A DNA stretch of 64,000 nucleotides, from NCBI GenBank assembly GCA_964016885.1, contig OZ024744.1:36642001-36706000 (forward strand), given 5' to 3'. The position numbers and the translations under genes were made by a program. The stretch is from Eledone cirrhosa. Its lineage: Eukaryota. Below are positions 3,707 to 57,800 of the stretch, in pieces (within the stretch, counting starts at the first letter, position 1; each line of letters opens with the position of its first letter). Under the pieces are notes generated by a model that had not been told where the DNA came from, made no database searches, and was given only the letters and a program-made list of their open reading frames with translations.

Positions 3707-4139
3707 AATATATAAACAACCATCTGGTTGTGGAACCAACCAACTGGAAATTTATAAATTCCTAAATTTATAAATTTATAATAATAAATTGAAGTGAAGC
3801 AACTGGTGCGTGTGTTTCTTATTGGCAACATGACCCTCCCAAAGTATAACAATATCGGTTTCAACACACGTTTTTAGATAAAGAATCTTGCTAAACAAAT
3901 TCAGAAACGATATATATATATATAGTAAAAAGAAAAGAAAAACAGTAGAAAATGCGAAAGGGATTTTCTCTCAAAATAACATCAATACATTTATTTACAA
4001 AATAGGAATTTCTGCATTAATTGTACCGGTTTCAGATTTTATGCTTTTTCACACGACGGAAGTGTATAATGATGTTAAATTGCATATTAATAAAAATAAT
4101 AAGAATATGGCGAAAAAATTGTTTTACATACATATCTAG

Positions 4140-7100
4140 GGAGAAAAGTTCACAATTTAGATGACGGACACAATGTACGCGTTCGACACCTCCGCTCGAC
4201 CTTTCTGAGATAGCTTCTTCTCGGCCCATTTCTTGGTGAGAGGACACTTTTCTCACCACCTCGTCCCAATTTTTGTCCGTCTGGAGGCCTGGAATGAACC
4301 ACGCCCCTAGCAATTTAACCCGTCCGTCCGTCCAGCGCCCGACGACGCTGTTGAACTGAATGGACCTTCCTATCCGAGTGCCGAGCTGCAGGCCCACCGA
4401 CTTTTCCTGGTTAATCATTGCTCCTGTCACTGCATCGTATTCTCTTAGTGTGGTGCCGATCACCTCGATGTGTTTGGCATTCGACACCACTACGATGACA
4501 TCGTCTGCGTATGTTGTCACTGTTCTTCCACATCCCAGTTCGCGCGGGACCCCCCTCAACACATCCAGTTTGTGCAGTAATGGCTCGAGAGTCAATGTGT
4601 ACAAGAAGGGACGAGAGGGCGCATCCTTGGCAGACCAAGCGCATGATGTTGAAGGGTTCCGAAAGGTTACCCTTCACTCTCACACCAGAGCAGATGTCGC
4701 TGTGCATGGCAGAGATCCAGCCTCTGAAGACGGGCCCCAAGCCAGCCACCCTCAGGACTGCCGCTAGATAACGATGGTCGACCCTATCGAAAGCTTTCGA
4801 CTGATCTAAATTGATCAAGGTTCCACCCGTGCCAGGTATCCCAGCTAACCCCTCTACGATGTATCACATGAGGTGGAGGTTGTTGTGAATGGACCTGTCT
4901 GGAATGGCGCATGTCTGCGCCTCTCCCAGCAGACCACCGACGACAAGCGCCAACCGCTTTGCTAGCACCTTGGCCAAAATCTTGAACTCACAGAGCTGGG
5001 AATTCTAATGTTCGTAGGGCAGACAATCCAAACCAGGCTATTTAACCATTATGCAGCCAGTCATTGCCTCCCATTCTTCAGCGGCTGTTATCGGCTTTTT
5101 ACAACACTCAATCTCAGTGACCGAGAACGCCGGCAGTCCGTCGAGATAGGAACTAAAGTCCATTCCGCGATCCGGCCCGCCACCGCCCCTGAACAGTTGA
5201 GCGAAGTGTCGCTGAAAAGCTTCACACATTTGCCCGGGATCGAGTAACATGCGCCCGTCGTAGTCCACCAAAGACCGGACCGTGGCTTTGTTGCCACGAC
5301 GCGCCTCCGCCACTCGAGCCCATTGAACGGCTTTCGTCCCCTCGTGTCTGAGAACACGCGCGCTAGCTCTGACAACGCAGCCTCCGGGCTTTGCGTTGAA
5401 AAATTTGGTCGAGAGCCAATTTCGCCGCAAGTACGTCGGTCGCGATGCCTTTACTAAGCGCCTCCTCTAATTTGCAAAATTGTTCTCCCTCTGCTCTATT
5501 CTTCTCTATTGCTAACGCCTTAGTAAACCTAATGGACTCTATTCTAATCACTCTTTTCAGGACAAACGACAATTTGTTCTTGGCGATGGCCCCCGTTAAC
5601 GTCCGCTTAACAAATTAGCTAATCCGGTCTCTGTAAGCTTTGCGCGCTGTTAACGACGCGTTTAGCTTCCAGTAGCCGGGTTCCTGTCTATGAAGCCTAT
5701 CTACGTCAAACACACAGATCACAAATTTGTGGTCCGTGTAGTCGACTATCTTGAATTGTGGCCAGCCTATGCTAGGCATATCTATTTCCCTACAAAATAC
5801 CCTATCTAGATAAGATCTGGATGACTCGATGCGGTTTGTCCAAGTCCACATTGGCACAATTGGGAAATCCAGACGGTACCTGTCAGACAGTTGAAAACGT
5901 CCGAGCAGGTTTGCGGGGCTTTTACATACTCCTCCCATATCCGCTAATCTTACACAATCCCAGCGTGCATCTAAGATCCCGCTCCAGTCACCCACTAACA
6001 CTACTAACACCTTTCCAAGAAAGGTCTTCTGCCGCCAGAAGAAGCCAGGCCGTCCTGCTCCCGTTGGGGCATAGACGGCCACTAGCCTGAAAGCTTGCCC
6101 TTCTCCGCTGGTCACGTCCAGCACCAGCAACTTACCTTCTGGGTCCAAGAAGATGGCCCGTATCTCGATATCCAGACTTCTCCGGAGCAAGACAGCCCCC
6201 TCCCCCCGATCCCGGACGGCTTGCAGATGTGTACATCTCGTAGCCGCTGAAAATGGGTGGGAATGCCCGTGCCTCGGAGATTCTGGTCCCGCTGAGGGCC
6301 ACCACTTCTATGTTTAGCGGCCTGAGATCGTTGAGCAGGTGGCCCTGCTTCCCAGATGACCCCAGGCCACGTGCATTTATGCTACCTATCCTGAGAGAAG
6401 CCATGTTGGCTAGGACAGGTGGAAAACAAGTGATAGGGGAAAAGTAAAAAAAACTTTACCTGTGGCTCTTTTTTAGGAAGGGGGTGGGTGACCCATCCCT
6501 CCGACCAATGGTGGGTTTCTCCACGAGAATGTCTGTGAATATTCTTTTAGTGATGTTCCCTCGGTCGTCTCCAATTAATGTGGGGAACATTTTTTTTAAT
6601 GTCATGTTTTTTTTTGGGGGGGGGGGGGGTGATTTCTATAATTATTGTGTGTGTGTGTAGGGGGGGGGGGTGCAATGCTAGTGGTCTGCATGTGGTTTGT
6701 TTCTGTGATGTTGGTGTGGTGTTGAATGTAATTTAAAAGCTTTGTGTTGTCTGTTTCTATGGCTGTGTATTGTGTCTGCTGTTTGGGTGTTGGTGTTTTC
6801 TGTGTTTGCTGTGGTGTTGTTGGAGGTGACGATGGGGTAGATGGTAAGGGTGGTGGTTATATTGTAGGTGGTTGTGGGTGTGTGGCTGTTGATGGTGGTG
6901 GAGGAGTTGGGGTCATTTTCATTTTCTTTTTTTGGTTTCTTTCTTCCTCTTTTTTTTTGGGGGGCAAAGGTAGGGAGTTCTTCCTTTTTTTTGCTGGGAT
7001 GGATTTCCATCCTTCGGCCTCATCGCACTCCTTGTCCGATTTAGCAATATCGGGAAGGGGCATGCTCTCCATTGGTTCTGTTGGTGGTGGAGGAGATGGT

Positions 7101-9982: not shown

Positions 9983-11287
9983 ATTTCGCCTACAATAGAA
10001 CAAAAATGAAATGTTCTTTAAAGAAACAGGAATATAACTTTATAAAAAAAAAAGTTGCATCCGCTTCTTTTATCATTGATAATTTTTTCGTTTTAATATT
10101 AATTGTTTTTTGTAGTTGTTTATATTAAAAATCTTACTGTAATATTTACTTAAACGAAGGCAAACATCTAAACTTATAGATTAATCTTGAGCGAAGGACT
10201 AGATAATTAGGTATATTTTGTAATATTATTAACTAATTATTATAATTAACGCGCATATTTTGCTATCCTCAAACACGTTTACACATGGCATGAAATATAA
10301 CTAATCCGAGATGGCTAGGTTTCATCTTCTAACTGGATATACGAAATCCATTATGTCTTGACAACAACATGAGGTACCATTATGTTATTCACAGACACAC
10401 TTTGTACACTGTTCCATATCAGAATGTATTTCCTTCGTCACATTCACAAACAGTATTGAAAATATGTTCTTCGGCAAATAAAAATGTTTTGTTCATAATA
10501 TTTCAACTAGCGATTGCTCTACTTCACGCACGACCACCATAAATTAATGACCAGCTCAACACAAGTATTGGTAGAGCGTCAGACACCATGCTTTGCAGTA
10601 TTGTTATGGTCCTTTGCATTCTAAGTTCAAATCCTGCCGAGGTTAACTTCGACTTTCATACTTACTAATTCGATAAAATAAAGTACCAGTAATGGACTGC
10701 CGTAATGGATTTGTGCCGAAAAATAGAAACACTATTAATGTGCAATAAGAGCAAAATATAACGACATTGCTCAATTATTTTATCTAATGTTGTAATAACA
10801 CAAGGAAATGTTGTTTGTGTATTTTTTTTTATATTTGCTCATAGGCTTTTACAATTTCGCTCAGCCAACAACTATTAAAAAGTGAGTTGCTTAAGATAAC
10901 AATTTAATCACAAATTGTTGCTATCTTTTAATACACTCCAACAAGTCATCAAATTATGTACAATAAAAACAAATCTTATTAATTTGCTCAGGGAATATAA
11001 AGAAAATGTATATACACTGATAATTGCAATTGTATGTAAATATTTTGTTTTTGTATTGTATATTTTATGTTTTCTATTATGTATAATATATTGATTTAAT
11101 ATTGATTGTTTTTTGTAGTTGTTTATATTAAAAGTCTGAAAATATTTTTATACATCTTACACTAATATTTATAAGATAATTTATAATAACAATTACATAA
11201 TCTAATTACATTACAACGATAATTTATTATTAATATATATCCTGTTTAACTAGAGTTATTACAAGCGTTGCCTTAAAAAAATATTAA

Positions 11288-12243
11288 ACTAGACATGAAA
11301 AATGCGCAAGCTCAAAAGTGCCACAGAATGTTATAATAAACCTTCAAAAGTGTGGGACTAGAGTTGTTGCTAAAAAATATTGTAATCATTATATATCGTA
11401 CATTCTGTGGCATCCTTTATAAAAATAGCTTAAACCAACGAAGCCTTTATTTTTACGCTATTTCACTTAGTTAATTCTTAGAGTGTAACATATAAAAATA
11501 AATACATCTATGTTTAATGTAATAACAGCTATAAATAATTACGTAATATTATTATCATATACTCATAGTAACAAAATAATTGTGTTGAAACTTAATATGA
11601 TGCTTATATGAACGATCAAATCTATAATGATAATTTCTTAAATATACTAATAGTAAAATAATTTAGTTATCTATTGTTACATTTTCATAGAACTATAATA
11701 TTAACAATCGTATTGCATTATCAAATTTTTATCACTACAAACTTTCATATTGGAATTACCTTAAGTCACTTATTATTACTTCGCTTTCGTACTTTTACAG
11801 CTGTAGATATTGCGCTGTATCTTATATCTAATATCAATATCTCGTGGTAATTTGCATGAAGTGTAAAATAGGTTTATTAATAACTTTAATATGAAATGTA
11901 TTATACAGGGCTGCGGAGTCGGCCAAAAATTGACTGGCTCCAACTCAGGATCCGATACTCCACTATTTCCTAAATTTCAGCTCCGCAGCTCTGTTATTAT
12001 ATTAATTAATTTATTTTATAGTTGTAAATCATATTTTTATATGTTACACTCTAAGAATTAACTAAGTGAAATAGCGTAAAAATAAAGGCTTCGTTGGTTT
12101 AAGCTATTTTTATAAAGGATGCCACAGAATGTACGATATATAATGATTGCAATATTTTTTAGCAACAACTCTAGTCCCACACTTTTGAAGGTTTATTATA
12201 ACATTCTGTGGCACATTTGAGCTTGCGCATTTTTCATGTCTAG
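11288..12243. repeat. ~212-bp inverted repeat pair (11288-11500 / 12032-12243)
   Basis: Near-identical reverse complements around a ~530-bp AT-rich spacer. Confidence 0.92.
11906..11993. mobile_element. 88-bp hAT-like MITE
   Basis: TIRs CAGGGCTGCGGAG / CTCCGCAGCTCTG; 8-bp flanks GTATTATA / TTATTATA. Confidence 0.75.
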
Positions 12244-12328
12244 TATATATATATATATATGACTAAAGGAATTTTTTAGCCTGATAATGGGGTTTAGAAC
12301 CCTCAGATAAATGTAAAAAGATGAGTAT

Positions 12329-12399
12329 TGACGTACATGGGAGTCGAACCCACATATTTGGTTATCGCGACCACTGTGCTACCATTACACCAACACATC
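12329..12399 (-). tRNA. tRNA-like cloverleaf, inverted copy
   Basis: Reverse complement of 12657-12727 with one substitution. Confidence 0.7.
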
Positions 12400-12656
12400 A
12401 CCCATCTCTTTCCATTCAAATTAGAAATTACATTCTTAGCGAGTTTAAATGGGAAGTAAGTATGTTTTAAAACAGTGAGCATTTATCTGAGGGTTCTAAA
12501 CCCCATTATCAGACTAAAAAATTCCTTTAGTCAAAACTACGGTGAAAGCTATTTCTATTTTCTAATTTCAAACCTGCTCACTATTTCAAAACATACTTAC
12601 TTGTCATTTAAACTCGTTAAGAATGTAGCTTCTAATTTGAATGGAAAGAGATGGGT

Positions 12657-12727
12657 GATGTGTTGGTGTAATGGTAGCACAGTGGTCGCGATAACCAAAG
12701 ATGTGGGTTCGACTCCCATGTACGTCA
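12657..12727 (+). tRNA. tRNA-like cloverleaf (pseudo-tRNA; nominal anticodon CGA, G at position 33)
   Basis: Acceptor GATGTGT/GTACGTC, D arm GTGT-AATGGTA-GCAC, anticodon arm GTGGT-CGCGATA-ACCAA, T arm GTGGG-TTCGACT-CCCAT; T5 run at 12737-12741. Confidence 0.7.
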
Positions 12728-12862
12728 ATACTCATCTTTTTACATTTATCTGAGGGTTTTAAACACCATTATCAGACTTAAAAATTCCTTTAGTCAAAAA
12801 TACGGTGAAAGCTATTTCTATTTTCTAATTTCAAACCTGCTCACTGTTTCAAAACATACTTA

Positions 12863-12897
<35 letters not shown>

Positions 12898-16947: not shown

Positions 16948-19900
16948 ATGCCTCGAAGGAAGAGATACCCCATTGGCCGAAATACTGCGATAGGGACAAA
17001 AGAAAGAACAAGGCGGGTAAACGATTCGTCAGTGGAATCTGCTATTCGACTGTCGCAAGATGCAGAACGTAGTGCCACCAGAAGAGCACTTGCAACATAC
17101 AAACAACGAACCAATCGCCGAACGGCTGATGCTGCATCAACTTCTGCTGCACGAGCTGCTGAGACAGAAGACCAGCTAAAACGTCGTCGGAGTGATGATG
17201 CTGCATAAACTTCGGCTGCACGAGCTGCCGAAACAGAAAACCAGCGTAGTAGTCGTCGGAGTGATGATGCTGCGAACACTAGTGCTGCGCGAGCTACACA
17301 GACCTCACAAGAACGAGATAATCAACTAGAAAGTAATGCTCAACGAAGAGCCTTTAGGCAGGGCATTTCAAAGCTGTGCCGCTTAAAATGGTCCTTCAAA
17401 GCCTTCGAGTACAACCCCGACTTCAACTATGGCAGCCACTCAGACATGATACTTGGGAGTATGTCAAAATCGTGCTCTTTTTGCAATACTAAAAAATGGT
17501 CAGGCGAAATACCTGGTATGTGCTGCGCAAACGGGAAGGTCAAACTGTACCCACTGGAGGATCCACCACAGACGTTGAAGCTCCTTCTTGCAGGTACAAC
17601 TGCAGAATCTAATCATTTCCTGAAAAATATCTGGAAGTACAATTGCGCCTTCCAGATGACACCTTTAGAGGCAATTATTGTCAAAGAGGGTGGATTTATG
17701 CCCACATTTAAAGTGCAAGGGCAGGTGTACCATAGAATTGGATTAATCCAGCCTACCGCCAATCAATTTCCTCAATTTCTTCGACTTTACTTCGTCGGGA
17801 ATGTCAGCGAACAGGCAGCCATGCGGAACTCCATTTCACCTGGTACCAACCTGGAGCTTATGAGGCAACTACATGACATATTACACACAAACAACAGCTA
17901 TACAATCAGTTTCAAATATGCCTTGGAATCAGCTCCTGCATCAGACTTTAATGTGGTCAATGACGCCTCAAACAGGCTTTCTGGGGAGCATTCGGGCCGC
18001 TACAATTTACCTGCTTGCAATGAAATCGCTGTCCTTCTCCATGGCGATCAGCACAACTCACGAGACATTGTTCTCAGGCGACAGGACTCTTCAGCGTATA
18101 AGTGAAACCCATAGATCTTATGACACCCTTCAGTACCCGCTTCTGTTTGTGCATGGAGAGGACGGATACCGATTAGGTCTTCCACAGCATAATCCAGAAA
18201 ACCCTGGGGATTCCGCCAAGAAAACCGTTTCCTGCATGGACTTCTACTCATGCCGCTTCATGGTCCGCCAAAACTCCTTCAACGACCTGCACCAGTCAAG
18301 AGACCTCTTTCAGCAATTCGCCGTTGATATGTGCGCGAAAATGGAGTCGGACAAGTTGTGCTTCATACGGTCATACCAGAGGCAACTGCGTTCCGAGAGC
18401 TACATCTATCTCCGCGATGCCATCAACAATGATGCAGCCTCCACCAGCGTAGGAAAACTCTGCATCCTCCCGTCCACTTTCACTAGAAGTCCGCGCTATA
18501 TGCACTAAAGGACGCAAGACGCTATGACTTACGTACGGCATTACGGTAGGCCTGACCTGTTCATAACTTTCACATGCAATCCCAAATGGAAAGATATTGA
18601 GGTAGAACTCTTCCAGGGTCAACAGGCCAAAGACATGTACACTGTAGAGTGGCAACAATGAGGCCTCCCCCAAGCTCATATCCTCATTTGGCTGTCCACT
18701 AAGATCAGATCCAACGACGTTGTCAAAATCATCTCCGCCAAAATCCCTGATCCATCTACCGACAAAATCCTCCACGACATAGTCATAAAAACATGGTGCA
18801 CGGCCCCTGTGGACGTGGTTTTAATTCAAAATCACCTTGCTTGAAAGACAGTATGTGCATCAAACGGTTTCCGAGGAAGTTTCTACCAGAAACCCAGACT
18901 GGCATTGACGGATATCCACTTTACAGGTGACGTAAACCCGGCGGTGGTGGTTTTACTGCAGCAGTTGGACAGCATGAAGTTGACAACAGATGGATAATGC
19001 CGTACTGCCCACTCCTATCCAAGACCTTCAATGCCCATATCAATGTGGAGTTCTGCAATTCAGTCAAGTCGATCAAATGTATATGCAAGTATGTAAATAA
19101 GGGGTTAGATGCTGCTATGTTCGGCCTTCAACAGGACAAAAGCCAGGATGAGGTTACACAATATCAAGTAGGCCGTTGCATCAGCAGCGACGAGGCCTTC
19201 TGGCGCAGTTTTGGCTTTCCCATACACCAAAGGCAACTTTCAACTGAGCAGCTTGTAGTCCACTTGGAAAATGACCAAAGGGTCTACTTCACCGATGTTA
19301 ATGCCGCTCAAATGGTGGAGGAACGACGGCAAACCAGCCTCACTGCCTTTTTCAAGCTTTGTCAGGACGATCCGTTCGCTCAAACATTGCTGTACCCTGA
19401 AGTGCCATCCTACTACAACAATGGGTGCGCAGAAGGGAAGGCCAACCTGTTGATGGGCATCCCGGCATAAAGTTTGACAGTTGTCTTGGAAGAGTTTACA
19501 CCGTCCACCCGAATCACTACGAATGCTTCTACCTCCGTCTGCTGCTGCATGAAGTAAGGGGACCGCAGTCTTTCCAGGACCTTCGAACAATCAACGATTG
19601 TGTATGCGGCACATACAGGGAAGCCTGCTTCAAACATGGTCTGCTGGAAGATGATGCACAGTGGAATGACACATTATTCGAGGCTGCTACTTCGCAATCA
19701 CTTCAATGTCTACAGGCTCTGTTTGCCGTATTACTTCAAACGTGCGAAATGGGTAATCCAAACTCTTTGTGGCTTAAGTATAGAGATGACCTTTCGGAAG
19801 ACTACAGACATCAGGCACTATTGCAGTACCCCGATATGGAAGGCACCAGTAAAGAGGTTTAAAATCGAGCACTAATTGACCTAGAGGACAGAATTGTTTC

Positions 19901-21326
19901 ACTTGGTGGAAATGATTTGCCCACATACGGTCTGACCAAAATACTCCAGTCAGGATTCGAGACACTTCCCACAGCTGTTCTACGGGAAAGGTCTTACGAC
20001 ATAGCTGCTCTTGCCCAATACCTCAATGAAATGGAACCACAACTGCTTCCAGACCAACGAAATGCTTACAACAGTATTGTTGACAACGTGCGCCGTCGAT
20101 CCGGTGGCATGTTCTTCTTGGATGCACCTGCTGGTACTGGGAAAATATTTTTAACCAAAGTCCTCCTCGCGAAAGTTAGACAACACGGACACATCGCGTT
20201 AGCTGTAGCCTCATCTGGGATTGCTGCTACTTTGCTGCCAGGTGGTAGAACAGCGCACTCCACATTTAAACTACCCTTGAATTTAGTGTCCTCTGAGACG
20301 CATTCTTGCAACATCAGTAAGAGTTCCGACCAGGGGCAAGTCCTCCGACGGTGTATTCTTATCGTATGGGACGAGTGCACTATGGCCCACAGAGGAGGCC
20401 TAGAGGCATTAGATATAGCTCTGAAGGATATCAGAGACTGTCAGGCTCCAATGGGTGGTGCAACGCTTCTGCTGTCTGGTGACTTTAGGCAGACTCCTCC
20501 TGTCATTCCTAAAGGCACAAGGGCAGATGAAGTACAAGCGTGCCTTAAGTCCTCACCATTATCGCAACATGTTACAACTCTCACTCTTTCCACTAATATG
20601 AGAGTTCGACTTCACGGTGACCAACTGTCTTCCCAGTTTGCTAAAGATCTTTTGGCACATGGCGATGGTAGTGTGCCTGTTAACGCGGCAGGGGAAATGG
20701 AGATCTGGCCACTTTGTTCTGTGGTTTCGTCCATCGAGGAGCTCAAAGACAAAGTATTTCCAAATTTGCAAGAAAACCTCCGTAACCATAACTGGTTGTG
20801 CGATAGGGCAATATTGGCTCCAAAGAACACCGCCATTAACAAACTGAACGACCAGCCAGGACATTTTCACATATGCAAGTCCGTTGACACAATGATAGAT
20901 CATAATGTGGCGGTAAACTATCCCACTGAATTTCTGAACCCATTGAACCCTCCAGGTCTTCCTCCACACATATTACGGCTCATGAAGGGAATTCCAATAA
21001 TGCTGCTTCGGAATCTGGAGCCACCAAAGCTATGCAACGGCACACGACTGGTTGTAAAAACATTGCTGCCCCATCTTATGGAGGCTACTATTCTTTCAGG
21101 AAGTAGACAAGAGGACGACGTATTCATTCCACGAGTTCCTCTCATTCCATCAGGAGCAGCCATTCCATTTTCCTTTGAGAGGCTTCAATTTCCAATTTGT
21201 GTCAGCTTTGCAATGTCTATCAACAAATCCCAGGGTCAGACCCTAGCTGTTGCTGGTCTTCTTTTGGAAGAGTTATGCTTTTCACACGGGCAACTATACG
21301 TTGACTGCTCAAGAGTGGGATGGTGA
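16948..21326 (+). pseudogene. Helitron Rep-PIF1 helicase, broken by stops, frameshifts and a deletion
   Basis: CC.NGKVKL, FKVQGQVYHRIG, LQYPLLF, PDLFITFTCNPKW, EWQQ*GLPQAH, SIKCICKYVNKG; helicase DAPAGTGK, GGRTAHS, IVWDE, GDFRQT, LCNGTRL, INKSQGQT, FSHGQLYV. Confidence 0.95.
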
Positions 21327-37744: not shown

Positions 37745-40700
37745 TTTCATTCTTAAGCCACGCAATGCTCACATTAAGGAACCACTCATGATAATAACAA
37801 TTTTAAAAAACAACAAAAAGAAAACCCCGTGACCAAGAAATACCGGGATGGCGGCCAGCGGGGAATAGCCGTGTCTCTAGGGGAGAACGACCCCTCTAGT
37901 CTTGGTTGACACTCGTTCTAGAAGTGGTAACACGAAATGATTACCCCTTGGCGGATAAGGATAAAACGTGACAAAATAAAGTAAATGTCTAATGATAAAA
38001 TCTCATACCGGATCGGCCATCACCCGGGTAAAAAAGGGCCGCGTCCCTCAGAGAGGAACCAGACTGGGGTCGAAAAATCAGCTAATGGTTCAAACCTTCC
38101 CATCACTTCGGAGCTGGAGACCTCCTATAACCGTAATACTCCTACTGTTGGCCCTCCATGCTCACCACCAACAAATCCAAAGAAAAAGAGAGAAAAATGG
38201 TCAAAGGAATATAATAAAGAAGTCCTTGAGGCTTTCTACACTGCCATGTACTACCCATCAAATACATCGAATACAGAACAGACATATATCAACTGGAAAA
38301 AGAAACATCCCGAAAACAGAGGCTATATTGACAGTAACAAACTAGCCAATATACGAAGGAATATTGTAAGAAAAAAGTTACTAACTGATATAAAAATTGA
38401 TCAGATCAAGCTATTAGCACAAAGTCAGCGAAGGGAAAATGAAACATGGGTCAGTGAAAACGAGGTAAACTGTAACACTTCGAACCCCTGGGTTGGGGCG
38501 CAATCACAGGCAGCAGAACAAATTAAAGAAAGGATCGAAAAAGTGGAGGGAGTGCATGCTCAGGATGAAACTCCAAATGAAAATAATGAGATCTAAATGA
38601 TAAAGAAATGAATGAGAATGAACTTGCCAACTTGAAGGATGAAATTATGATCGAATGGATGAAAATGAAAGAATCTGACATGGGGCAACGAGACACACTC
38701 CCTAAGATCCAGAACTCCAAACAGAACCAAAAGATAATACACAAGACTAACATAATTCTCAAAAACATTATCATCACAAACAAACTAAACATTACTGATT
38801 TAAATCATCTCTATTATGCATCGGCTAAAGTCACCACTCACTTATGTGGAGTGAAGATGAAAAAACAAAGGAATTCCCACAAGAAATCTACTTGGCAAGA
38901 GAACATCAATCGCCAAATAAACCTTCTCCGATCTGACATAGAAATTTTAACAAACTATAAAGTAGGTGAACATGATAAACAAACTAAACTTAGAAAATTG
39001 AAAAAAAAGTACAATATAAAATCAACATGTGACATAGACATGCTGATAGAAATAATGAAGCAAAAAGTGTCGGCCAAAGCTGCTCGTATAAGGCGCTTTG
39101 AAAAACGATCTAGATTCTATAAGGATAATAATATGTTCAAAAACAACCAAAGAAACTTCTACAGAAAAATTGGTAAGTCAACAATAACTGCTAAATCAAT
39201 ACCACCCAAGGAGAAAGTGCAAGAATTCTGGGAAAAGATCTGGGCCGAAGAAAAAGTTCATAACATACATGCCCCATGGATAGACAGACAAATGAAAGAT
39301 ACAGCTCACCTTGAGGAACAAATATGGGAAAATATAACAGTTGAACAGTTAAGCTTGGCTCTAAGAAAAACCAGCAAATGGAAATCCCCAGGAAAAGACA
39401 AAATACAAAACTTTTGGATAAATGCCTTCACAGAGTCTCATGAGGTGTTAGCCCAACTTTACAATGAAATAGTTAAGGAGCCAGAAAAGATACCATCATG
39501 GCTAGTTAACGGCATTACATTCCTGCTTCCGAAGAATGATGAGACAAACAATCCCAAAAATTACAGACCGATAACTTGCTTGACCACAATGTATAAAATT
39601 TTAACATCAGTCCTAACTGAATACATATATGACCACCTGATAACAAATGACCTATTTCCTATTGAGCAGAAAGGGTGTAAACGAGGCTCATATGGCTGTA
39701 AGGATCAGGTTCTGGTTAACAAAATGATACTGGAAGATTGTCATAATAGACACAAAAATCTATCCATTGCTTGGATAGATTATAAAAAAGCATTCGATAG
39801 TTTGCCACACAGTTGGATTGAAAAATGTTTAGAGATTTTCAAAATATCCCCCGTTGTCAGGAGGTTTTTGTCATTCAGTATGAAGACATGGAAAACGACA
39901 CTCCTTTTGAATAGTGAAACAAAATCACTGGAAGCTGGAGAAGTTAATATTAATTGTGGAATTTTTCAGGGTGACTCTTTATCACCGCTTTTATTCTGCA
40001 TCGCACTTATACCATTAAGTAAAATGCTCAATGAAACAAAACATGGATATAGAGTCTATGACAAAACCATTAATCACCTGTTCTACATGGATGACCTGAA
40101 ACTATTTGCAAAAAATGATGAACAATTGCAAGGGCTATTATCCACTGTGGAGCAGTTCAGTGATGACAGTAAAATGGAGTTTGGACTAGATAAATGCGCC
40201 AAAGCAACGTTCACCAGAGGAAAGCACCTGAAGAGTTCAGACATTAATCTTGATCGGGGGATCGTGATAAGAGAACTTGATCAAGAAAACACTTACAAAT
40301 ATCTAGGTGTTTGTGAAGGAGACGGAATCAAGCACTCGACAATGAGGGAAAGGATAAGGAAGGAATGTTACCGCAGTGTAAGAGCAATCTTAAGAACGGA
40401 ATTGAATGCAAGGAATAGGATCGATGCCATAAACACGCTTGCCATACCAGTAGTAACGTAGAGTTACAATGTCATCAACTGGTCAAGCACAGAGATCCGT
40501 AGGCTCGATACAAAAATTCGAAAATTCTTAACCATGCACAGAATGCATCACCCTAAGGCAGATATAGATAGAATATATCTCCCTAGGAAAGAAGGAGGAC
40601 GTGGGTTAATCCAGTTAGACATTGCGTTGAAAACTGCAACAATTGGATTATCTACATATCTAAGGGAATCACATGATTGGATGATCAAACTCGTTTTGAA

Positions 40701-51191: not shown

Positions 51192-54100
51192 ATGGATGTG
51201 TTAAGAGTAGGATGTTTGAATGCACGTGGCCTTGGCTCAATTTGGAAGCAAGCAAAGCTTCTAAATGACCTCAGGTCATGTAGTATAAATGTAATGGTTA
51301 TCTGTGAGACTCGAATCAGCGTCGTGCGGCAGCTGGCCCCCACCTTCGATGACTTTGAGGTGCATGCATCTCTCTGTCAACCTGGAGGTGGGGGTGGGGT
51401 TGTCGTACTGCTGCAAAAACATGTGGGTCTTGCCGTACAGGTTGTGCACTCGGACCCGGGGGGTCGTTTGTTGGTGCTAGACGTTGGCAGTAGTGAAAGT
51501 GCGGCCTTGAGACTGGTCGCCGTCTACTCCCCTTTCGGAGCTGAACGGCCCGACTTCTTCCAACGTTTGGAGACTTTTCTGGGAACGTCGCGTTCCCTGT
51601 TTCTAGCGGGGGACTGGAATTACATCCTAGATGCACGTTGGGACTATGCAGGAGCATGTCCTAATAGAGGGGGGGGGGTGTAACAGCCTCAAGGGGTTAC
51701 TCGACCGTTTTAACTTGGTCGATAGATATCGACTAGATTTTCCAACTGTGCCTACCTGGACTTGGAGAAACCACAGTGGTCAATCTAGATCGTACTTAGA
51801 TAGATTCTTAGTTAGAAGTAAGGATAGGGACATATTAAGCTGTCCAGAAATGCGCACGGTTGGCTACACGGATCACAAATTAGTGACCTGCGTAGTCAAT
51901 CTCGAGAAAACACATAAACAGGGTCCCGGTTACTGGAAACTTAATTTGTCTTTACCGGCAAAAGAGACTTACAGAAACCGGATTAGCAGATTAGTTAAGG
52001 AGAGGTTGACGGGTGCAATCGTCAACAACCGATGGTGGGCATCTCTCAAAAGAGAGATTAGAACAGAATCAATAAGTTATAGCAAGATGTTAGCTGCCGA
52101 TAGGAATAGAAACGAGAAAGAATTAACAGGTAAATTAGAAGAGGCAATCAAGAGCGAAGATGTGGCCAGAGTGCTGGCATCGAGGACGGCCTTGAACCAG
52201 TTTTTCGATGCAAAGCACGAAGGCTGCGTCATTCGAAGTAAAATACGTGCTCTAGGTAATGAGGGGCCCAAAGCCGTTGGCTGGGCCCGCGTGACAGAAG
52301 CTAAGAGTGGAAATCGATCCACCATCGGGTCGTTGCAAGACGAAGATGGACGGGTGATCCGGGAGCCTAAGCAGATGTGCGAGGCCTTTCAAAGGCACTT
52401 TGCCCGATTGTTCGGGCGAGGCGAGGGTCCGGGCGGGGGCGTGGATTTCGGTCCATACCTCGACGGCCTTCCGCGTCTCTCGAGCGAAGAGGCAGAGTCC
52501 TGCGAGAGACCAATCTCGGCTGATGAGATCGGAGATGCGCTGAGCCAATGCAGCAGACGCAAATCTCCAGGTCTCGATGGCATACCTTACGAACTTTATT
52601 TAGCAATGCCGGTCTTCTTCTCCGAACTCCTCGAAGCGGTCTACTGCAATTGGAAGAGGAACGGGAGAATTCCTTGTTCTGTAGCCAAGGGTGTAGTCAC
52701 GCTGGTGAGGAAGGACGAGAACAAGGGAGATAGTATAAATAATTTTCGGCCCATAACCCTGCTAAACACAGAGTTAAAGATTTTGGCCAAGGTGTTAGCA
52801 AAGAGGTTGGCGCTTGTCGTGGGTGGCCTGGTGGGAGATGCGCAGACATGTGCTATCCCATCCAGGTCCATTCACGATAACCTCCACCTCATGCGATACA
52901 TCATAGAGAGGGTTGGCAACAAACCCGGCTTCGGTGGGGCCCTGATCAACTTGGATCAGTCTAAGGCCTTCGATAGGGTCGACCATGGTTACCTGGATGC
53001 GGTGCTAGCGGCGGCTGAGTTCGGTCCTGTTTTCAGAGGCTGGATCACTGCCTTACATAGCAACCACATCTGTTCTAGGATCAAGGTGAACGGCTACCTT
53101 TCGAAGCCGTTCGAAATCACACGATCCATTCGACAGGGGTGCCCTCTCTCCTCCCTTCTGTACGTATTGACTCTCGAGCCTTTACTGAGGAAGTTGGAGT
53201 TGTTGCAGGGTATCCCCCTGGAACCAGGATTGAGCAAGGCGGTGTCGGCCTACGCCGATGACGTAACAGTAATGGTATCGACCGACTCGGAGATCGAGGC
53301 GATCGGTACCTTACTGGAGGATTACGAAAGGTTGTCAGGAGCGAAACTGAACCGGGAAAAATCCATCGGGCTGCAACTCGGAACGTGGAGAGGCAGACCG
53401 ATGCCTCCTGACAGTGTCGTCGGACACTGGACGGAGGGCCCGGTAAAGTTGCTTGGGGTCTGGTTTGGACCGGACCTCCAGGTGGAAAAGAACTGGAACG
53501 AGGTTACGAACAAGGTATTTGCACTAACCCAGAAATGGGCCAAGTGTAAGCTGTCCCTAAAAGGCCGGGCGGAGGTGGCGAACATTTACATAGCGTCCGT
53601 CACTTACTACCGCCTGACTGTCGTACCTTGCCCTAAGGAAACACTCACCACCATGGAACGCATGCTCTTCCAATTTCTTTGGAAGAAGTGCCCTCCTATG
53701 GTGAGAAGATCCATCTGCTGCCAACAACCTTCGAAAGGAGGGCTGGGGATGCCGTGGTTGATGATGCGTAGGCACGCATTAAGGTTACGGCACCTACAGG
53801 TATTCCTCACTGGTCAACCGGTGTGGGCTCCGTTCGTGAAACGAGCCTTTCCGAGACTCGTCTCGCTCACCGAGCTACAGTCCTGGGTCAAGCAAAGATC
53901 CGGAAAACTGGGATACTGGCACACTGAGTGTGCTCAGGCGCTCAGGGCTCTCTGGCAAGCGGGCCAGGCCATCGGTGGAGAATCCACCTCATCATTCTAT
54001 AGAGGGCTGGTGGCTAGCAGGGGCGATGACACCCTTGGAGAGTCGCTGGACATGGAAGAAGACGAACTGGCCAGCCTGTTCGGTAGGACTTTCGGCCCAG

Positions 54101-54633
54101 AACCAATGGACAACTTCCAGAAGTCACTGGCCTGGCAGTGCTACCGGGGGGCTCTACCCGTTCGAGAGAGGCTCTACAGACACGGGCGCCCGGGCAGGGA
54201 TCCCTCAAAAAAGATTTGCCCTAGATGCGTGCGTCACGAAGAAACCGCTGCGCACGCATTGGTGCAATGACCGGGCGTGGCTGATCTGTGGGGCTACGCC
54301 GAACAACTGCTGTCGCGGGTGGCGCCGATTCGATTGACCGCCGAGTCCGTGATGACAATCAAACCGCCTCCCCTCTTCACAAAGGAAGCAAAGGCGGTTT
54401 TTCTGTGCGTAATAGCCATGTTGAAAGAGGTTGTTTGGTGGACACAATTGAAAGGTCTGAGGTCAGGCAACTTCCTCTCTGGCCATAGTCTGGTCTACTT
54501 CTTCCGATATCACTTCGGAAGAAGGATAAGAATGAAGAGAGAGGTGCTTGGCCACAGGCAGTTTTATGAAAGGTGTGTGATAGTGGCGAGAATGGCTCGT
54601 GTAAATGGGCCTTCTCTGTATACCATCCTGTAG
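51192..54633 (+). pseudogene. LINE ORF2 (APE endonuclease, RT, C-terminal zinc finger); one frameshift, one stop
   Basis: CLNARGL, AGDWN, SYLDRF, TDHK, SPGLDG, FRPITLLN, LDQSKAFDRV, QGCPLS, YADD, CPRC...ET..H...; G10 run at 51669-51678; TGA at 54268-54270. Confidence 0.93.
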
Positions 54634-54888: not shown

Positions 54889-57800
54889 GTTTATTTAGAC
54901 GTTGTTTACTTCGCTACGAAGTTTTTGTAAATCTATGGTGGTAAAACCGTAAGTTTTTGTTCAATTTTTATAATATTGTGTAGCTTGACCCCCCGCCTGG
55001 ACTTTCAGGCGATGGGTCAACTCATCCCCCTCCCCCACCAGGGGCGAAATATTCGTTTGAAAAGTTTTATCTATCGAATTTTGAAAAAATATCGTAGGAA
55101 GTTTGTTTACTCGATGAACGCTGCGTTTGGCGATAATGGTGGTGGAGATAATGGTGCGAGCTGTGTAGTCTTACTACATAGCTCACAGTCAACATCGTCT
55201 TATTGCCTTTACTTCTCCATAGATACTATGGAGATGGAAAGAAGAAACCAAATTGTAAAAAAGAATTCAAATCCAAATGACACCAAACAGTACAATGACA
55301 ACAAAAATAACAACAACACCAATAATGATGATAAAAACAAAAATGACAACAACAACAAAGAAAAAAATAAAGACATCACCAATAATACCAGCATCAAAGA
55401 CAACACTAACACCAAGGAAAATACGAACAATATCAACATCAGTGACAACAAGAACAACAACAATAATGACAACAAGAACAACAACAACGTCAGCAACAAT
55501 GATAACAACAACACCACCAACAACAACAGCAATACGAAGAACCCCATAAGCAAGGAAAAGGTTTGCTTTGCACAAACCGTCCAAAAGACCGAACTGTTTA
55601 CATACCTTGACATTTCCAATGCTAGGGAATTGTTAAGAGATGCAAAGCAGTATGTAACTTTTGGTGAGAGTGGTGCTTTCAGCATCACTTCTCCTCAACA
55701 GTTACGTAGAGAAACTATAATTTTTAGGACAGTTTCAAATGTGTCTAAAAAACCGGTCCAATTATCGCAAAACAACATTGAACTGGGTCTGACAAATTCC
55801 ATGAAGGATATTGCCTTCATCCAAAAAGGTAAACTTTTTGGAAGCATTTCGGTGTTGTTGAAAGACCAATTGACGGCACAAACATATTCTGTGTCGCCAA
55901 TTGTGTCCCCCCCTTTACACCTTTTTCCCCACATATATGGGAAAAAAAACCCAAAAATTAAAATTTCGAACATTACACCAAATATCTCGTGGATTTTGAC
56001 TGGCTTCATCGATTTCGAGGAAGACACCATCATTTCAGTGGGAAAGTCCTCCAGAGGCACATTCAATGGTACAAGCCTGGAAGTTCTGGTCCAAATGAGG
56101 CCAGAACGGATAGCTAAAATACTCCAACGTGTGTCTCTGGATGGGATTTCATACATAAACATTTCTGTTGAGGGTAGGCCGCCTTCATGTTACCACTGTT
56201 TAAGCAGTAGTCACCTGAAGGCTTACTGACCTCAGTTAGCTGCAAAAAAAAAGAAGCACTACTGCCAACACCCAAAACAACAAAACAACCACCACTACCA
56301 CCACAACAACAACAACAACAACACGCAAACATAACTAAAACAAGAACAACAAACCAAACTGCAAGCACAGTTTCACCCAACCCCACTCCACCTAAAACCA
56401 CTGCAAAAACACCCACAAACACAACAGCTCCCCAAAACATACCCCTACCAAATAACACAGACACCACAAAGGACGAGGCCCCGTCATCATCACCAAGTGA
56501 TGATGAGGGAGAGGCTCTCCGTTCGAAAAGAAAGAAGAAAAGACGCCACAAGAACAAAAGAGCAACAAACATCATTACAAACATACAACCACCAACACAA
56601 ACAACACAAACATTACAAACAAAAACTCCCCGTCCCGAAAACAAAACCACGACATCACTCCAAACACAAACACCTACAAATAAACGAAAGCACACACAAG
56701 AACTACAGACAAAAACAAACACAGCACAAGAAAATTACACTTACACATACATAAACACTGAAAACAAAACACTAATGGAGACTATCACGAACAACCCTTC
56801 GGTGAAAACTGAAGGGAATATTTTCGCACACTCTAATAAAAATAATAAAAAACTGAACCTAAAACTGATTTGGGTCCCTATACAAACTTATAGGTCCCTA
56901 AAAGAAACATTTAAAAAGGATGTGGGGAATTCCTGCGTGAAACCACTTAACCGCGTCCTTCTCAAATGTCTCCCCACCCCAGACACCCCCACCCCAGACA
57001 CCACCATCCCACCAGACACACGCTCCCCACCAAATATCTCCGTCACCACCCCAACGGCAACCACCACCCACCCAGACAACCCCTCCAACACCCCCATGGA
57101 AATTGTGCAGCCAGGTCCCCAGGAGACGAAGAAGGGAGTGATTTCTTTTACTCTTCTTTTAAATTTTCAGCGCCAACATGACCAATATAAAGTTGTATGC
57201 GGCCCGGGGATGCACTGGAAACAGGGCAAACTCTTAAACGACCTCTTAAACGACAGTATGGATGTAGTAGCCATTTGCGAGTCGAGGATCCACAGCGAGC
57301 AACAGCTGGCCCCCATCTTCGACGACTCTGAGATCTACGCATCTCTCTGTCAGCCGAGAGGTGGGGGCGGGGTTGCCGTTTTGCTGCGGAAACACCTGGA
57401 CGTCGTAACACAGACGGTACGTCTGGACCCGGAGGGTCGACTGGTGGTCCTAGACGTTGACGGTAGTGAAGGTGGAGCCTTCAGGCTGGAGGCCGCATAT
57501 GTCCCATCCGGGACACCGCGGCTAGACTCCTTCAAACGTCTAGAGACTTTTCTGGGAACGTCCCGCTCCTTGCTTTTAGTGGGGGACTGGAAAGGAATCC
57601 TAGATGCACGTTGGAACTATGTGGGAGTATGTCCCGATAAAGGGGGGGGGGGTGTAACAGCCTCAAACAGTTAATCGACCGATTTGACCTGGCCGATAGA
57701 TATCGACTAGATTTTCCGACTGTGCCACTGTGGACGTGGAGTAATCGTAGCGGAACATCTAGATCGTACCTAGATAGGGTTCTAGTTAGAAATAAAGATA

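Follow-up and report, generated by a model that had tools for sequence, protein, structure and literature searches.

The window analysed here, a stretch of 64,000 nt of the Eledone cirrhosa genome, contains one insertion of a high-copy repeat which is headed by a tRNA-like sequence, and most copies of this repeat break off in the T-loop of that head. Judging from the sequences, we put somewhat better than even chances on a repeat that is transcribed by RNA polymerase III (Pol III), copied into TA microsatellites by a Penelope-like (PLE) enzyme and mostly truncated beside the A58 of its head, because the host likely methylates this base.

The insertion, its repeat family and the tRNA-like head

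The insertion occupies window positions 12260-12864 as one member of a multi-copy family, with TA runs on both sides. Unit positions are counted from base 1 of the tRNA-like head (window 12657), and the A58 of the standard tRNA numbering corresponds to unit position 56. The features are as follows, in window coordinates:

12244..12260, no strand: left (TA)n target run, read from the sequence
12260..12481, minus strand: inverted arm, which begins at unit position 179, crosses the tRNA and has its "short" 3' end at 138 (repeat alignment)
12329..12399, minus strand: tRNA-like copy of the inverted arm (Rfam RF00005, 39.7 bits; ARAGORN)
12480..12481, no strand: 5'-to-5' junction of the arms, overlap of 2 nt (arm alignment)
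12480..12864, plus strand: direct arm of 1.46 units, which begins at position 87 and has its "long" 3' end at 205 (repeat alignment)
12639..12656, plus strand: 5' half of the stem that prolongs the acceptor stem (folds; retained in all four subfamilies, A to D)
12657..12727, plus strand: tRNA-like head, likely derived from tRNA-Gln (Rfam RF00005, 41.2 bits; ARAGORN)
12664-12674, plus strand: A box of the head
12706-12716, plus strand: B box of the head
12712, plus strand: A58 (unit position 56), putative m1A site; 5' ends of the family pile up 1-8 nt 3' of it
12717..12720, plus strand: CATG palindrome, the commonest joint of two T-loop-truncated arms (junction map)
12730..12747, plus strand: 3' strand of the extended stem, including the T5 run (sequence, folds)
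12737-12741, plus strand: T5 run, 9 nt past the last tRNA base
12865..12893, no strand: right (TA)n target run, read from the sequence

The direct arm of 385 nt contains a 122-nt direct repeat with a spacing of 263 nt (12480-12601 and 12743-12864, 96% identity), which agrees with the roughly 1.45 tandem copies of a 263-bp unit seen in the first-pass annotation, as do the preceding inverted copy, the (TA)n bounds and the T5 run after the tRNA. No further copies of the family were found elsewhere in the window. Because the whole tRNA head was retained in just 7 of 60 insertions of a 3'-selected sample, the window copy is an atypical one, belonging to the minority with a complete head. Its left TA run adjoins a distinct element of 963 bp (11285-12247) with terminal inverted repeats of 216 nt that are 99% alike and with high depth in public contigs, which looks like a young, abundant MITE. 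The window also contains Helitron pieces (17864-21326; Helitron_like_N and PIF1 helicase frames) and LINE-type reverse transcriptase/endonuclease frames at 38590-40461, 51631-54270, 56211-57674 and 4032-4673, whose motifs are not PLE-like.

In the genome of 3.0 Gb, we counted 1207 exact matches of a 21-mer from the tRNA and 4907 of a 17-mer from the 3' region, with no match of either reversed-pattern control. The family is therefore a high-copy one, with thousands of arms, far beyond chance. The multi-copy, non-autonomous RNA element proposed in the first-pass annotation is supported, and a single-copy unit is disproved. The unit is non-coding, 260-290 bp long and has a GC content of 38%. Subfamily A, to which the window copy belongs, has a unit of 260 bp (32 units differ by about 3% from the consensus), while those of B and C measure 290 bp and about 270 bp; subfamily D is older, carries U58 and was studied in its own sample of 50 of the 51 D matches. 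Loci were sampled by the position of the search pattern, giving 78 tRNA-selected and 60 3'-selected insertions (both from contig 1) and 35 spacer-selected ones. Before counting, we removed loci that duplicated an insertion already sampled, together with three near-identical repeats. This took out 10 of 70 loci selected on the 3' region, 9 of 87 selected on the tRNA (13 in the end statistics) and 10 of 45 from the fresh sample. A first sample of 30 loci, biased to long copies, served only for the consensus, base counts and within-locus distances, and the base counts omit two long arrays that ran past the locus edge. One long array (two loci) contains at least 7 units, perhaps more than 6 kb if the loci are continuous, and is more diverged than the dispersed copies. 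Between subfamilies, the tRNA is the best-kept region (63-67 of 71 bases vs. 104/129 to 121/136 in the 3' region), and among copies changes within the tRNA are as frequent as elsewhere in the unit (2.8%).

Both tRNA-like copies of the window score above the Rfam RF00005 cut-off of 29 and are called by ARAGORN, which confirms the complete 71-nt cloverleaf with A and B boxes noticed at first. The head is identical to genomic tRNA-Gln, the only isotype compared, at 42 of 71 positions, and an exact 18-mer of the tRNA-Gln D-arm is present in some older copies; a derivation from tRNA-Gln is likely on this basis. One of about 30 tRNA-Gln genes has stem-like flanks, which we rejected as a clue to the source since it may be a chance occurrence. 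A cluster of tRNA-Gln genes lies on contig 1, where one variant with a CTA anticodon is called tRNA-Pyl by ARAGORN. The pairing of about 11 bp between the flanks of the head turned out to be real and longer, extending over 19 bp in the family consensus, and the stem folds in all four subfamilies. The tRNA together with the stem gave folding z-scores of -4.1 (A), -2.5 (B) and -3.9 (D), whereas the whole 263-nt unit folded no better than shuffled sequences (z -0.12). It is possible that the long stem shields the RNA from RNase P/Z or holds its ends together. The initial argument from the anticodon arm against a translation tRNA held in part: G33 is only a variant, with U33 in 58 of 128 subfamily-A units and 37 of 40 B units, while the 27-43 mismatch is present in most units (repaired in 14 of 133 A units). 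With this mismatch, a pyrimidine at position 37 and a loop that varies across subfamilies, a functional tRNA gene was rejected. A sub-lineage of A with the repaired 27-43 pair is frequent among copies starting at the tRNA (8 of 13 arms with ends at 0 to +13) and possibly represents a monomeric SINE-like master. Such repeats inflate tRNA gene counts; those studied here are called tRNA-Ser.

Insertion ends and Penelope-like enzymes

Insertions of the family consist of one arm, or of two arms joined 5'-to-5', within (TA)n; the simple divergent two-arm structure accounted for 33 of 60 insertions in the 3' sample and 43 of 78 in the tRNA sample. Of 60 sampled insertions, 52 had TA no more than 20 nt away from their left end and 53 from their right end, and TA flanks recurred in the fresh sample. 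The 3' ends fall into two fixed zones, at about 155-176 and 203-211 in subfamily A, and of the 66 two-arm loci that could be classified, 62 combined a long with a short 3' end (p 1e-14); in the other 7 of the 73 two-arm loci, one end fell into neither zone. The same pairing was seen again in 15 of 18 loci of the fresh sample, which contained 20 two-arm loci. The median offset between long and short ends is 45 nt in subfamily A. At the junction the arms overlap by 0-4 nt in 47 of 73 two-arm loci; in sequence they overlap by 100-200 nt or more, and tandem units keep a 50-nt spacer upstream of the tRNA.

PLE insertions described by Craig et al. (2021) have a one-sided tail, an inverted 5'-truncated copy and a TA bias (PMC8557442), and Frangieh et al. 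showed that the two strands of the target are each extended by a PLE protein, which starts at two sites inside the RNA that bound the tail (PMC11167929). Divergent arms, partial tandems and paired long and short 3' ends thus support the PLE-type geometry of the first-pass annotation, and the element is very probably mobilised by a PLE enzyme. The variable permutation points considered there are not supported in that form: 3' ends lie in the two fixed zones and 5' ends pile up in the T-loop and at the tRNA start, so that internal initiation by a PLE enzyme plus run-off or stalling suffices without a circle.

A genome-wide search gave 10595 GIY-YIG candidates, 150 of which were scored. The autonomous loci that were read encode a reverse transcriptase with a C-terminal endonuclease and are mostly Neptune-like; the probable assignment to Neptune follows from the C-terminal GIY-YIG domain and an upstream CxxC motif (PMC8557442). 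No Naiad was identified among the 60 PLE loci read. Comparing the unit with these 60 loci (from the 150 listed GIY-YIG places), we found no match below E 0.3 except for one separate insertion of the unit itself, and the best match between unit and PLE in a 20-locus subset (E 0.011) was AT-rich. This missing likeness to an autonomous partner counts against the explanation favoured here.

One Neptune-type family, F2, also has its arms in TA (7993 exact matches of a 22-mer) and shows the same layout as the tRNA-headed unit, with 3' ends at +125-130 in 10 and at +174-178 in 16 of 30 arms. Relative to the hammerhead cut, 11 of 30 arms have their 5' ends piled up at -71..-63, and just 4 of 30 begin at +2..+11 after the hammerhead. 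The pile-up near -70 likely marks the transcription start of F2 and falls on an initiator-like stretch. Putative hammerhead-like cores were seen in several Neptune-type families about 130-215 nt before the 3' end; several of them have U3-A8 instead of C3-G8, and one has an altered GAAA. In the sense strand of subfamilies A, B, C and D, neither a strict nor a relaxed pattern of the hammerhead core motif found such a core, in agreement with the absence of a ribozyme from the first-pass annotation. A similar pattern does find the cores in Neptune 3' ends, which Rfam misses, so that a blank Rfam result says little. HDV-like or other ribozymes were found neither by eye nor by Rfam, which is insensitive here. 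A GAAAGCT stretch was rejected as a hammerhead half, being kept in neither C nor D and having no upstream core.

A58-dependent truncation and its explanations

The 5' ends of the copies vary and do not all lie at the tRNA start, as those of a unit beginning at its tRNA would. Position 64 is reached by 54 arms of the 3'-selected sample, and 41 of these end at 55-64. The stop rate per base was 0.076 at 55-64, 0.018 at 65-72, 0.002-0.006 from 73 onwards and zero at 45-54. Counting one arm per locus, 27 of 37 stop in the T-loop, and the same holds for 12 of 17 insertions with a single arm, in which a palindrome partner is lacking (ends counted at positions 55-66). The far edge of the pile-up is unit position 57, i.e. 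base 59, immediately 3' of A58; the exceptions are one arm ending at 56, which is explained by A's in the flank, and one ending at 55. Most T-loop ends lie at 61-62, where CATG joins two arms, or AT joins an arm to the TA flank, by microhomology. A symmetric 61/61 junction is the commonest single junction class. The CATG joint is borne by most contigs in two public runs, which come from one sample, perhaps the assembly's own, and therefore give no independent support.

Subfamily D keeps the T-stem, the CATG and the stem below the acceptor and has U58 in 20 of 20 readable copies. Only 1 of its 35 arms stops in the T-loop (2 if one doubtful boundary is counted), compared to 41 of 54 in the 3'-selected sample (p 9e-13; 2e-9 with the stricter count of one arm per locus). 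The T-loop truncation is thus A58-dependent across subfamilies, with D as a limited control, since it is older, differs at one further base of the T-loop and was perhaps copied by a different enzyme. Another pile-up is found where the tRNA begins, with ends from -9 to +8, and comprises 27 of 101 A, B and C arms passing the tRNA, the rest running on, and 9 of 23 arms in D. This fits a Pol III start. The tRNA is likely the Pol III promoter, as the first-pass annotation had suggested, while the processing by RNase P/Z offered there is not favoured because many 5' ends lie 3-9 nt upstream of tRNA base 1, where a transcription start fits better than an RNase P cut. A weaker pile-up occurs in the anticodon arm at positions 25-44 (4/13 on the first pass, 6/18 on the second, 7/33 in D), for which we propose other modifications or fold-back at the stem.

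The A58 of tRNAs is usually methylated in cells, and a reverse transcriptase that reads through m1A often misincorporates. Retroviral reverse transcriptases are established to stop before m1A58 (review PMC13191261), and Su et al. also describe this stop (PMC9021294). We consider it fairly likely that the T-loop pile-up is such an m1A58 stop, not a cut or an effect of structure. Since most stops are at 61-62 instead of 57, trimming must be assumed. Read-through copies showed no excess of changes at A58 in subfamily A (4/137, 2.9%, vs. 2.6% at other A's), one change in 43 B units and none evident in 29 arms ending at the start site, which counts against a methylated template.

In the proposed cycle, Pol III would start about 5-10 nt before the tRNA and read through the T5 run; such transcription with read-through is probable, although a T5 run that is conserved ought to terminate many Pol III transcripts upstream of the start sites, which counts against the whole explanation. 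The PLE protein would nick both strands of (TA)n, and reverse transcription would begin at two places inside the RNA that are separated by about 45 nt (in subfamily A, near 155-176 and near 203-211), yielding two arms, one with a short and one with a long end. On RNA carrying m1A58, the enzyme would halt at base 59, and trimmed cDNA ends would be joined by microhomology, mostly at CATG, to give promoterless stubs. A minority of unmethylated RNAs would be copied to the start site or through further units, producing intact or tandem copies like that of the window, which alone could seed new rounds; the long templates would be either circles or linear read-through RNAs. If this is true, m1A58 methylation by the host deprives about three quarters of the copies reaching the tRNA of their promoter. 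Thousands of 5' ends in the genome would then preserve the trace of an RNA modification that existed at the time of copying, and the lineage would be carried on only by an unmethylated, perhaps circular, RNA pool.

Arms which have passed one tRNA stopped at the next T-loop in 0 of 18 cases and 1 of 5 in the fresh sample, 1 of 23 in total (p 3e-9), and long arms stopped at an upstream tRNA start in 0 of 11 cases and 0 of 2 in the fresh sample. The rarity of second-pass stops implies that the block belongs to some RNAs and not to the sequence, and that two template classes are needed. Polymorphic sites agreed in 904 of 985 comparisons within loci (92%) vs. 15530 of 24468 between loci (63%), and rare alleles were shared in 51 of 580 vs. 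170 of 17632, showing that both arms of an insertion come from a common source. In 34 loci, tandem units differed at 268 of 6423 sites (4.17%) and opposite arms of the same register at 287 of 6821 (4.21%); with tandem units no more different than opposite arms, the units were alike at insertion. This fits the re-copying of one monomer, by a circle or a jump, and equally young uniform arrays.

The main propagating form might accordingly be a ribozyme-free retrozyme, in which a unit-length RNA, circular or nicked and held by the 19-bp stem, is copied repeatedly. The likeness of tandem units and the long arms that ignore upstream tRNA starts and mostly T-loops would suit it, the stem would hold both ends of a unit-length RNA in a circular fold, and linear Pol III copying alone would presumably shorten the arrays in every round. 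Young uniform source arrays or ordinary tandem-building by PLEs give the same pattern, though, few arms run long enough for testing, the 5' ends at -9..-3 speak for a transcription start, and a circle does not itself explain the A58 stop. We regard it as improbable as a general explanation; as a mere source of the long arms, compatible with the m1A58 stop, a circular template is a less remote but still doubtful idea.

Slightly less probable again is that the T-loop of the RNA is cut in an A58-dependent manner, as in the formation of 3' tRNA fragments, and that the PLE enzyme then runs off the new 5' end. A cut accounts for the edge near base 59 and the missing A58 misincorporation; fragments of 18 and 22 nt, cut in the T-loop, have been seen on northern blots (PMC9021294), and the 100-150 nt between this site and the start sites downstream of it roughly match the position of the hammerhead cut in autonomous families. 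It would require a nuclease that reads base 58, while the observed edge equals a known stop of reverse transcriptases, and in F2 only 4 of 30 arms begin just after the hammerhead.

We give very little weight to a joining or structural effect, with cDNA ends annealing at CATG or the enzyme stalling at the folded tRNA regardless of base 58. The abundance of symmetric 61/61 junctions and the symmetric joints at other palindromes (positions 53 and 64) would agree with annealing. The lack of a pile-up in D with the same palindrome and T-stem largely refutes it, single-arm insertions pile up at the T-loop too, second passes through the same sequence seldom stop there, and a block by the stem would act near position 90. 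Just as improbable is a tRNA-SINE which a LINE has mobilised and inverted at the 5' side through twin priming, or else a satellite or MITE that arose at the DNA level: the tRNA head with its boxes, the copies starting at the tRNA and the LINE reverse transcriptases in the window suit a SINE, but LINE priming fits neither the two fixed 3' zones, the long/short pairing and the lack of an own tail nor the long arm overlap and the tandem units with their upstream spacer, and neither a MITE nor a satellite agrees with 5' ends that vary and short arrays that are dispersed.

Comparison with known systems

The repeat resembles animal non-LTR retrozymes (Cervera & de la Pena 2020, PMC7229834; Li, Clavereau & Pollet 2026, 10.64898/2026.07.22.740005) in its non-coding unit of low GC content and its dispersed short tandems. 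Retrozymes have units of 150-450 bp with a GC content below 45%, a range that includes the 260-290 bp and 38% found here, and are proposed in these papers to depend on PLEs. Unlike retrozymes, which are defined by a type I hammerhead in each unit, the repeat has a tRNA head and no hammerhead was found in it, nor did it show any likeness to the pLTRs of PLEs; it is thus not a retrozyme by definition and appears to work like a PLE passenger. The main text of the 2026 preprint does not contain the word "tRNA".

Partial tandems, an inverted 5'-truncated copy, a one-sided tail, TA-microsatellite targets and head-to-tail multicopy insertions are shared with non-autonomous PLEs such as MRC1 (Chlamys) and with Naiad and Neptune insertions, as described in PMC8557442. 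The tail is about 45 nt (A) to 64 nt (B) long here, compared to 30-40 nt in the PLEs described there. MRC1-type PLEs generally share 3' sequence with an autonomous family, whereas the repeat shares none with the 60 PLE loci, and it differs from them in having its own tRNA-type promoter.

Like the repeat, SINEs derived from tRNAs (SINE2) carry A and B boxes in a tRNA head, at which a part of their copies begins. The repeat differs in its ends from internal initiation, its two-arm insertions, its tandem units with an upstream spacer and a cloverleaf preserved enough to pass the Rfam cut-off. With only 27 of 101 arms stopping at the tRNA start and with two internal 3' zones, we rejected an assignment to SINE2. 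The octopus repeat annotation, in the part cited here (PMC13282606), contains PLEs and many unclassified SINE families and describes no such tRNA-headed PLE repeat. In the literature searched, with Repbase, Dfam and subscription journals outside its scope, we found no description of a tRNA-headed PLE passenger, nor, within the same scope, of an m1A58 stop traced in genomic copies.

The halt before base 58 is like the strong stop of retroviral plus-strand synthesis, for which minor stops at 55, 54 and 37 are also reported (PMC13191261). In retroviruses, the tRNA is a host primer and the stop is needed (PMC13191261), whereas the tRNA of the repeat belongs to the very RNA that is copied, where a halt would cost the new copy its promoter. 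If the A58 reading is true, RNA modification becomes readable from the ends of genomic copies and comparable across subfamilies of different age, and tRNA methylation is a candidate host restraint on tRNA-derived mobile elements. We see even chances that the repeat represents a new class of SINE-like passengers of PLE enzymes, with the m1A58 methyltransferase as a brake and the 5' ends as a record of the modification. The co-existing subfamilies make the poorly known PLE cycle testable, and the 260-nt unit offers a minimal template in vitro.

A related design is that of the TRIMp3 elements Helenus, Ajax and Cassandra (Kojima 2024, PMC10886601), which likewise carry a Pol III promoter derived from a small RNA inside the repeated unit. 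TRIMp3 are LTR elements with PBS, PPT and target duplications of 4-5 bp (PMC10886601), whereas the ends found here vary as those of PLE arms do, and a target duplication is unreadable inside (TA)n. The tRNA-headed unit may be regarded as the PLE counterpart of the TRIMp3 design: Pol III passengers are known for LINEs (the SINEs) and for LTR elements (TRIMp3), and a PLE case would fill the empty cell.
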